Assembly: GCA_963735805.1 (NCBI GenBank)
Contig: CAVTMK010000001.1
Span: 1 to 64,000 of the forward strand
Direction: 5' to 3'
Source of the DNA: an uncultured Verrucomicrobiae bacterium
Lineage (GTDB): Bacteria > Verrucomicrobiota > Verrucomicrobiia > Chthoniobacterales > UBA10450
Length of the DNA stretch: 64,000 nt
Below the pieces are notes generated by a model, which saw nothing but the letters and a program-made list of their open reading frames with translations, ran no database searches and was not told the origin of the DNA. Both the position numbers and the translations under genes were made by a program. Shown piece after piece: positions 22,395 to 23,666 of the stretch. The number at the start of each line of letters is the position of its first letter. Positions within the stretch are counted from its first letter, which is position 1.

Positions 22395-22471
22395 GTCTAA
22401 CGAGAAAGAGATAAGCCGCGGCAGGGTGTCGTGGCAAGCACGCTGAGCTTATCTCGCAATGGGGCCGTTAG
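22395..22471 (-). other. attC site 3, R'/L' portion (interrupted by IS110)
   Basis: Closely matches attC2 and attC5 up to ggggccgttag, then switches abruptly to IS sequence. Confidence 0.85.
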
Positions 22472-22485
22472 TAACTGTCTTGGTT

Positions 22486-23415
22486 TCAAGCATAATTTAG
22501 ATCGGGTTTGAGGGAACTGTTGAGCACGATCAAGAGTTTTCGCATGGTCGCAGTGAGGGCGAGTTTGGCCGGTTTGCCAGCCGCTCGCAATCGCAGATAA
22601 AAATTGCGCAGGATTGGGTTGTGACGCGCGGCGACTAATGCGGCCATGTAAAGTCCATGTCGAACGAAACGCCGTCCACCGTAGATCGCGCGTTTGCCGC
22701 GCATCTTTCCGCTATCGCGATTAAACGGCGCTACTCCGACCAAAGCTGCAACTTCACGACGATTGAGTTGTCCCAACTCAGGCGTTTGCGCCAGCAGTAA
22801 GGCCGCCGTGCGTTCCCCAACTCCCTTGATTGAGGTCAGTTTCTCTGCCTTGGCAGATAGACGGGGCGACTGTTCAATGTGCTCTTTGATCAGTAGATCG
22901 AGTTTTTCAACCTGCTTTTTGATTTGGTTGATCAAACTGCGATTCAATCTCACCACCGAGGCATTGCTGACACGCGCACCGCGATTTTGTTCCATCACCA
23001 GCAAATGAGTTAAGTGCCTGCGCTGGCTCTCCAACTCTCGCAGATGTTCTTGCTCCAACGTCCCAGCGGTCACTGTCTGCGGCCGCATCACCTTGCCAAA
23101 CTCGCACAGTACTTCCGCGTCGATGCGATCGGTCTTCGCCAGGATTCCCGCCGCTCGCGCAAATTGCCGAACCCGGTTGGCTTGAACCAGACTGACTTTG
23201 ATCCGCGCACCAGCAAGCGCCTGGACTAATCTGCGTTCATAACCGCCGCTCGATTCGCAAATCACCTGAACTGTAGCCTCAGTTTGCTTAATCCACCTGA
23301 TTAGCTGTCGATGGCCAACCCTGTCGTTACTGAAACGATGTTTTTGTGCTCCAATCGCCGCATCCAGATGTGACTTGGCAATATCGACTCCTAAATAGAC
23401 AAGTTCCTCTTTCAC
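22486..23415 (-). CDS. IS110 family DEDD transposase/recombinase
   Basis: [22 protein letters not shown] (DEDD); SIKGVG; RDSG (catalytic Ser); ALTATMRKL. Confidence 0.96.
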
Positions 23416-23632
23416 GTGGTAAATAACTCCTGCTTCTTAGATGCGAGCTGGCCAGGCCGGTCTTGCCCTCGGGGTTTAAGGCCGGCTTGGTCGCTCCAGT
23501 AACTGTTCGAGTTTACTTCACACGCCCAAGGGCAGGCACGGATCGAACTAACGGACGCTCTTGGTCTAACCAGAAGCCGCTTCATCGAGGATCGCGCACC
23601 TGCTGCCCTTTTGCACCAAATCAAGGGCCCTT
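23416..23632 (-). ncRNA. Predicted IS110 bridge RNA
   Basis: 5' hairpin GCCCTT/AAGGGC. Target loop closed by GCAGGTGC/GTGCCTGC with guides CGAUGAAGC (23587-23579) and CCGUUAG (23554-23548). Donor loop closed by GTAAACTC/GAGTTATTTAC with ACAGUUACU (23506-23498) and AGAAG (23437-23433). Ends are approximate. Confidence 0.82.
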
Positions 23633-23647
23633 TAAAGAAGATAGAGG

Positions 23648-23666
23648 CTTCATCGTCTGGTGAGAC
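23648..23666 (-). other. attC site 3, R''/L'' portion
   Basis: Plus strand cttcatcgtctggtgagac matches tttcatcgtctggttaggc of attC2; the R'' core carries one substitution. Confidence 0.82.

Follow-up and report, generated by a model that had tools for sequence, protein, structure and literature searches.

An IS110-group insertion sequence whose guides match the integron attC site that it splits in a soil Chthoniobacterales-like bacterium

The window analysed here is a stretch of 64,000 nucleotides from an uncultured Verrucomicrobiae bacterium of the Chthoniobacterales (assembly GCA_963735805.1, contig CAVTMK010000001.1, positions 1 to 64,000). Within it an insertion sequence (IS) of the IS110 group interrupts a repeat of the integron attC type, and the non-coding end upstream of its transposase carries words that match the two halves of the interrupted site and the ends of the element. 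We describe the element and its site, compare the guides with the flanks of relatives, and place the transposase among known attC-inserting elements.

The element and the attC site that it splits

The transposase showed the two features that define the IS110 family, a DEDD RuvC-like domain (D11, E54, D96 and D99 intact) and a Tnp20 domain with the catalytic serine (S235, also intact). It scored 197.9 bits against the NCBIfam IS110 model NF033542 (cut-off 140), and its solved-structure matches were IS621 and ISCro4 only (E 4e-33 and 1e-32). With 230 bp of non-coding sequence upstream of the transposase versus 16 bp downstream, the element has the IS110-group layout (Table 1). The likely ribosome-binding site of the transposase (23431-23427) overlaps the closing stem of the predicted donor loop, and RNA folding may limit translation.

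A second copy in the same genome (G000:C2:245519-246699) is 98.5% identical, has identical junctions and diverging outer flanks, and both copies are inserted at the same base of an attC. For the relatives, 80 of 366 were retained from genome contigs and 80 of 391 from metagenomes, and family searches supplied more; among the kept genome contigs the closest named hosts were Verrucomicrobiae and Chthoniobacterales metagenome-assembled genomes. A relative of 64% identity in genome G239 fills the first two attC sites behind the integrase gene intI, and these two insertions are alike at 2,675 of 2,700 positions, distal attC arm included, which allows either copying of the whole unit or two separate insertions. 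The plasmid search gave no match over nearly the full length that exceeded 45% identity, and the viral contigs held no close relative (best 39-45%). The genome also contains an unrelated truncated IS110-family gene fragment of 26-29% identity (C3:503415-503850, locus L210).

When the element was excised in silico, 96 bp remained, equal in length to the intact sites at 21748 and 27687, and the insertion point lay just after the L'' box, as the earlier note on this DNA, made from sequence alone, had proposed. In the consulted part of PMC2727003 the attC site is defined by the boxes R''/L''/L'/R', the R''-L'' arm having extra bases; in the present repeats R'' pairs with R' and L'' with L', and two extra bases lie on the R''-L'' arm. 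On the strand of the element this arm comes first (5'), so the insertion is in the sense orientation of the cassettes. Of the 26 loci that could be tested, 19 have a sense open reading frame (ORF) whose end is no more than 60 nt from the target; a further 13 were too short. The attC family has three further members in the window and 22 arms genome-wide by a strict pattern, and in an array at C2:1255-1278 kb, headed by an integron integrase (TIGR02249, 470 bits, cut-off 265), it separates same-strand ORFs. Most of the minimum-energy DNA folds, computed for six attC sites, were no more stable than those of shuffled sequences (z +0.7 to -2.4); the identification as attC is based on the layout of the boxes, the complementarity of the arms and the array next to intI. 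On these features the split repeat is an integron attC, and its recombination by IntI is predicted.

It could be argued that the guide merely reads a short sequence within a family of repetitive extragenic palindromic (REP)-like repeats, that these are not working attC sites and that the resemblance is incidental. Sister elements do target REP-like hairpins, the folds are mostly shuffle-like as given above, and contig C1, which carries the attC cluster of the window, has no integrase gene. We nevertheless consider this very improbable, as the repeats separate same-strand ORFs in an array starting at an integron integrase (also in G239), possess the four boxes with the extra bases on the expected arm, and occur in subfamilies that the guide variants follow.

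Empty-site contigs from four sequencing runs, which were compared as contigs only, read from 22469 straight into L'', the core being CC; for habitat, runs with small shares were set aside. Just two attC sites of G000 are occupied, and a site matching fully around the core is empty. Left-end scars occur at the same base at C2:1536723, at C2:1261882 and in three other genomes. At C2:1536712-1536820 and C2:1261882 the attC sites retain only the first 17-30 bp of the left end of the element; the former looks like a microhomology deletion and recurs in soil run X4 (joint 22460 to 23625, one contig), and the latter, inside the intI array, has lost its distal attC arm. Besides, a repeat of up to 176 bp lies 3 nt past the core in at least six G000 attC sites (C2:1272455-1272630, 1269933-1270108, 1264538-1264713 and 247445-247600; C1:160495-160667; C3:8765-8860) and alters right-target bases. 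Parts of it recur elsewhere in G000; a small mobile element would be one explanation, an expansion that shields the site by chance another.

Table 1. Positions of the element, its predicted guides and the surrounding attC sites (window coordinates unless a locus is named)
Feature	Position	Strand	Remarks
IS110-group insertion sequence, 1,176 bp including one core	22470..23645	-	Bounds from second copy and relatives
IS110 transposase/bridge recombinase, 309 aa, GTG start	22486..23415	-	PF01548 and PF02371
Upstream non-coding end, predicted bridge RNA	23416..23637	-	5' hairpin about 23628-23605; target stem 23603-23536; donor stem about 23517-23425
Left target guide CGATGAAGC	23579..23587	-	Covaries with left flank
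Right target guide CCGTTAG	23548..23554	-	Covaries with right flank
Left donor guide ACAGTTACT	23498..23506	-	9/9 match to 22478-22470
Right donor guide AGAAG (23437-23433) with handshake dinucleotide (23432-23431)	23431..23437	-	Supported by covariation
Left donor and CT core, right end of element	22470..22478	-	Right core CT in 43/44 loci with both junctions
Right donor	23638..23645	-	Contains -10-like word (23643-23638) of predicted circle-junction promoter
-35-like word of predicted circle-junction promoter	22484..22489	-	Overlaps stop codon
Proximal part of split attC	23646..23666	-	Damaged R'' 23666-23660, spacer, L'' 23654-23647, target core CC 23647-23646
Distal part of split attC	22395..22469	-	Right target, variable stem, L' 22416-22410, R' 22401-22395
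Cassette ORF between split attC and next attC, 179 aa	21848..22387	-	No Pfam match
Intact attC, same family, next downstream	21748..21843	-	
Diverged attC, same family, upstream	26563..26658	-	
Intact attC, same family, upstream	27687..27782	-	
Second upstream-RNA lineage (318 aa)	L273:1870-3300, L281:1870-3300		Antisense at R'' end of attC-like sites

Guides in the predicted bridge RNA and their covariation with the flanks

All four guides that had been read from the minus strand of the non-coding end were recovered at the positions in Table 1, and none of 20,000 dinucleotide shuffles of the 217-nt end contained all four words together. Singly, the left target, right target, left donor and right donor words appeared in 32, 441, 9 and 8,889 of the 20,000 shuffles respectively; the 5-nt right-donor word alone is thus at chance level and draws its support from covariation.

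Covariation was evaluated on 77 rows, anchored on the donor-loop motif and cleared of duplicate flanks; duplicates of the window and the G007 locus, which supports no claim here, were excluded. The left flank matched the left target guide at 446 of 472 bases over 59 loci (46 perfect; shuffled mean 358), and the right flank matched the right target guide at 238 of 255 bases over 51 loci (37 perfect; shuffled mean 187). When only distinct guide/flank pairs were counted, the matches were 127/152 on the left against 80.5 in shuffles and 77/90 on the right against 49.7. The right donor guide, which occurs in two variants (36 + 14 loci), matched in 50/50 loci. The left donor guide is nearly invariant and so matches (all seven donor bases in 53/55 loci) but cannot covary. 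No shuffle out of 20,000 reached the observed match for the left target, the right target or the right donor, distinct pairs included, although these counts overstate significance as the covarying rows are kin. Moreover, target position 7 is complementary to the first base of the handshake dinucleotide in 17 of 20 distinct rows (shuffled mean 9.0). Natural changes of the guides thus go together with matching changes of the flanks, which bears out the proposal of an IS621 bridge-RNA layout with guide-directed attC targeting.

The other copies, checked for unrelated flanks, sit in attC: the context was present for 47 of the 48 rows having an attC-type left guide, R' was seen downstream in 30 of 38 attC-guide loci, and the guide variants go with the attC subfamilies present in G000. 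At L006:1190-1270 the element sits after a partial tandem duplication of attC, which leaves a left flank without R''. Eleven relatives (53-65% identity where the protein was readable) carry other guides and lie at other, mostly matching, sites, and among loci below 55% identity just 1/89 was in attC context, namely a frameshifted close relative.

The targets of the whole branch are palindromic repeats. This is what would be seen if targeting needed a folded attC hairpin or integrase activity on single-stranded or cruciform DNA and the guide set the register only; occupation of two G000 attC sites while a fully matching one stays empty, and tolerance of mismatched flanks, point the same way. 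Such a requirement seems unlikely to us, since pairing of the guides involves both strands of a single arm, which calls for duplex DNA as in IS621 (PMC11208158, the portion consulted), and the guide-flank match accounts for the site without any structure.

The arrangement of two loops behind a 5' hairpin, also claimed in the earlier note, held in part. In the aligned relatives the target stem is 95.6% paired, with two-sided changes in 3/6 pairs of its inner hairpin, and the donor stems are 88-100% paired yet nearly invariant, so that two-sided changes are few overall; the 5' hairpin, which aligns poorly, is only 45% paired as aligned. The fold of 23416-23632 was not more stable than shuffles (z -0.52), and its minimum-energy form partly pairs both target guides with each other. 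The alignment backs the two-loop RNA model, and the predicted structure is partly supported. Likewise, of the suggested circle-junction promoter, the 16-nt spacing between the -35-like and -10-like words was confirmed. TTGA is present in the -35 region of 68/70 right ends, but the -35 word overlaps the transposase stop codon and its conservation is not independent promoter evidence. The Rfam scan of the window gave no match. The promoter/terminator scan of the linear locus found none, as expected if the promoter forms at the circle junction.

Phylogeny and comparison with known attC-inserting elements

The conclusions on phylogeny are drawn from careful trees of 36, 32, 26 and 24 rows (LG+G4), a 76-row tree having been made by a quick method; the trees were built without IS621 itself and included ISEc32 and an IS621-related plasmid protein. 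Identity of the transposase to ISEc32 is 38%, compared with 24% for an ISPa21-like protein and 23% for IS4321. It fell in a clade with ISEc32 (97/97 in the 36-row tree, 98/97 in another careful tree), and ISKpn4, the ISPa21-like protein, ISPa62 and ISPa25 formed one clade inside IS1111 (36-row tree). Forcing the two attC groups together cost 252 log-likelihood units (approximately unbiased test, p-AU 9.6e-46). The rejection of this grouping indicates that attC targeting arose independently of the IS1111-attC elements, as had been suggested. In the 24-row tree the attC-guided members formed one branch (85/80), which joined the otherwise-guided relatives at 100/98; one retuning event within this clade is the simplest reading of the tree, not a proven one.

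A divergent IS1111-attC member whose RNA had moved upstream, with attC targeting inherited, would also produce such an element. IS1111 members with an upstream non-coding region exist (PMC11187229, as far as consulted), and insertion near the 5' end of attC is common to both groups. We regard this origin as hardly credible in view of the rejected joint grouping, the greater identity to ISEc32 than to the ISPa21-like protein or IS4321, the lack of long subterminal repeats, the opposite orientation and the different register.

With IS621 and ISCro4 the element shares an upstream two-loop RNA (here predicted) with four guides in the same order (PMC11208160, Durrant 2024; PMC11208158, Hiraizumi 2024; PMC13626964; each in the portions consulted), the 7+2 register, the CT donor core, handshake pairing, a junction promoter (here putative) and DEDD plus serine; unlike theirs, its target is attC, not REP, with a target core that is mostly CC. 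ISEc32 is the nearest named transposase found, and the donor words are common to distant relatives; however, the ISEc32-like elements have other targets, with no attC context in 88/89 loci below 55% identity. The IS1111-attC group (ISKpn4, ISPa21, ISPa25, ISPa62 and ISPst6), reportedly treated by Tetu and Holmes in 2008 and by Post and Hall in 2009, likewise shows RNA-guided insertion near the attC 5' end, but has a downstream RNA, long subterminal repeats and antisense orientation, and forms a separate clade of 23-25% identity. The ISPa21-like element, with its long subterminal repeats and its non-coding region downstream, inserts antisense at the start of L'', in line with the consulted parts of PMC3001079 and PMC11187229 (Siddiquee 2024). 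Group IIC-attC introns are also site-specific attC parasites, but are retroelements with antisense insertion (PMC3001079, same portion).

Among 27 viral-contig matches, two (L273 and L281) represent a second lineage with an IS110 gene and an upstream RNA between cassette-like ORFs. This lineage, which is probably IS492-like, appears to target attC. It resembles the present element in IS110 group, upstream RNA and attC-like target, and differs by insertion at the R'' end, antisense orientation, a GT core and 35% identity (two loci examined); its grouping with this clade was rejected at p-AU 0.005. In the literature searched, ISfinder not covered, no upstream-RNA IS110-group element in attC was described, and in PMC11208160 attC occurs twice, as far as consulted only in the reference list. 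The consulted part of the Durrant 2024 supplement, however, holds at least 22 unannotated rows with the donor-loop motif of this clade, at least one of them paired with an attC-type target, and at least about 30 matches with targets resembling the attC R'' end. The novelty claimed at first is therefore narrower: the lineage stands as independent, with relatives already present in that supplement, and the clade is probably not the only upstream-RNA lineage that targets attC.

At locus L291 (G239:C12:121020-126700) one attC holds a stack of two different IS110-family elements, one of 352 aa in the R''-L'' spacer and then the element of this clade after L''. In G239 the stack occurs at both the first and the second attC behind intI. 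The 352-aa element has inverted ends and a downstream non-coding region and branches beside IS1111 on a long branch.

Taken together, we consider with a probability of roughly 0.88 that this is an IS621-type IS110-group element, and that a single reprogramming of its target loop in soil Chthoniobacterales-like bacteria directed it to the R''-L'' arm of host attC sites. Besides the kinship of the covariation rows and the shuffle-like RNA fold, several observations weigh against it. Flank matches are imperfect in 13/59 loci on the left and 14/51 on the right, 8/38 loci have no recognisable R' within the available sequence, and R'' of the window attC is damaged (CAC for AAC). The support for a single origin is just 85/80. 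Contigs of the four sequencing runs contained no end-to-end circle joint, and RNA-library contigs cover the ORF and the non-coding end equally, giving no small-RNA evidence either way.

Core use, proposed transposition cycle and probable effect on the integron

Among 44 loci with both junctions, the left/right cores were CC/CT in 27, CT/CT in 15, TC/CT in 1, CC/CC in 1 and CT/CC in none. The left core is thus CC in 28/44 while the right core is CT in 43/44, so that identity of target and donor core does not hold; the first core base is kept, and the second core base of the left guide varies (G, C, T, A). By the strict pattern the core is CC in 17 of the 22 G000 attC arms (one being a scar), and distant relatives have CT at the left junction in 10/10 rows. 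The usual reaction appears to be a CC target with a CT donor, each core staying on the top strand. This agrees with cleavage 3' of the core (PMC11208158) and with the top-strand transfer described in bioRxiv 10.1101/2025.10.25.684509, both in the parts consulted. The absence of CT/CC junctions was considered as a test of two-strand versus top-strand-only integration and rejected; both models can give top-strand products, since the bottom strand of IS621 is cut elsewhere and mismatches are repaired (PMC11208158, same part). In the consulted passages, IS621 strongly prefers core pairing (PMC11208160) and the CT core is invariant and always paired (PMC13626964, Hiraizumi 2026). The unmatched core therefore lowers the likeness to IS621, not the membership of the IS110 group.

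By analogy with IS621, the top strand would be cut 3' of the core at both ends and the ends joined to a circle, whose junction would form the promoter from which bridge RNA and transposase are made. The complex would then pair the donor with 8+5 bases around the L'' end. This target spans both attC extrahelical bases, which the mirror arm lacks, and insertion would thus occur on one arm and in the sense orientation only. The top-strand products would have the target core (mostly CC) at the left junction and the donor CT at the right; as each junction keeps its own core, a match at the second core base is not required.

With the element in place, L'' and L' lie 1.18 kb apart, and the second extra base ends up on the far side. 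On replicating DNA, but not after conjugation, long loops were found to lower attC recombination by as much as 4 logs (PMC8946536, the portion consulted). We therefore expect that the insertion probably cripples integrase recombination at that attC and fuses two cassettes, sparing their genes. The earlier note suggested that the element could move on cassettes; with the site more likely crippled, it would ride only inside a fused cassette.

More tentatively, and at somewhat less than even odds, at least three RNA-guided IS110-family lineages may have arrived at attC separately (IS1111-attC, the antisense upstream-RNA lineage at R'', and the present sense lineage at L'') in different registers of one arm, so that two can stack, with the present lineage being a natural bridge recombinase for which the second core base need not be matched.

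Elsewhere in the window, positions 133-2276 hold a 126-bp (42-aa) tandem repeat of at least 15 copies, probably encoding a repeat protein; duplicated blocks about 3.3-3.5 kb apart with 70-95% identity at 38900-45700 are probably tandem paralogues, and a lone ORF with a VgrG/phage baseplate OB-fold (PF04717) lies amid unrelated genes at 18573-19001.

It is well supported that a known mechanism has here reached a known target by a separate route, the target, the sense orientation and the use of the core being new for an IS621-type system. Natural retuning appears to have turned a bridge RNA from REP-like repeats towards integron sites, and its guide variants follow attC subfamilies. The arrays of gene cassettes in abundant soil bacteria thereby contain an IS, which probably joins cassettes or disrupts them; its left-end scars lie in arrays. 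The pairing of a CC target with a CT donor is a natural case against a strictly invariant core and, if true, the unmatched second core base would relax the core rule in genome editing and give a natural strand marker for the completion of integration.
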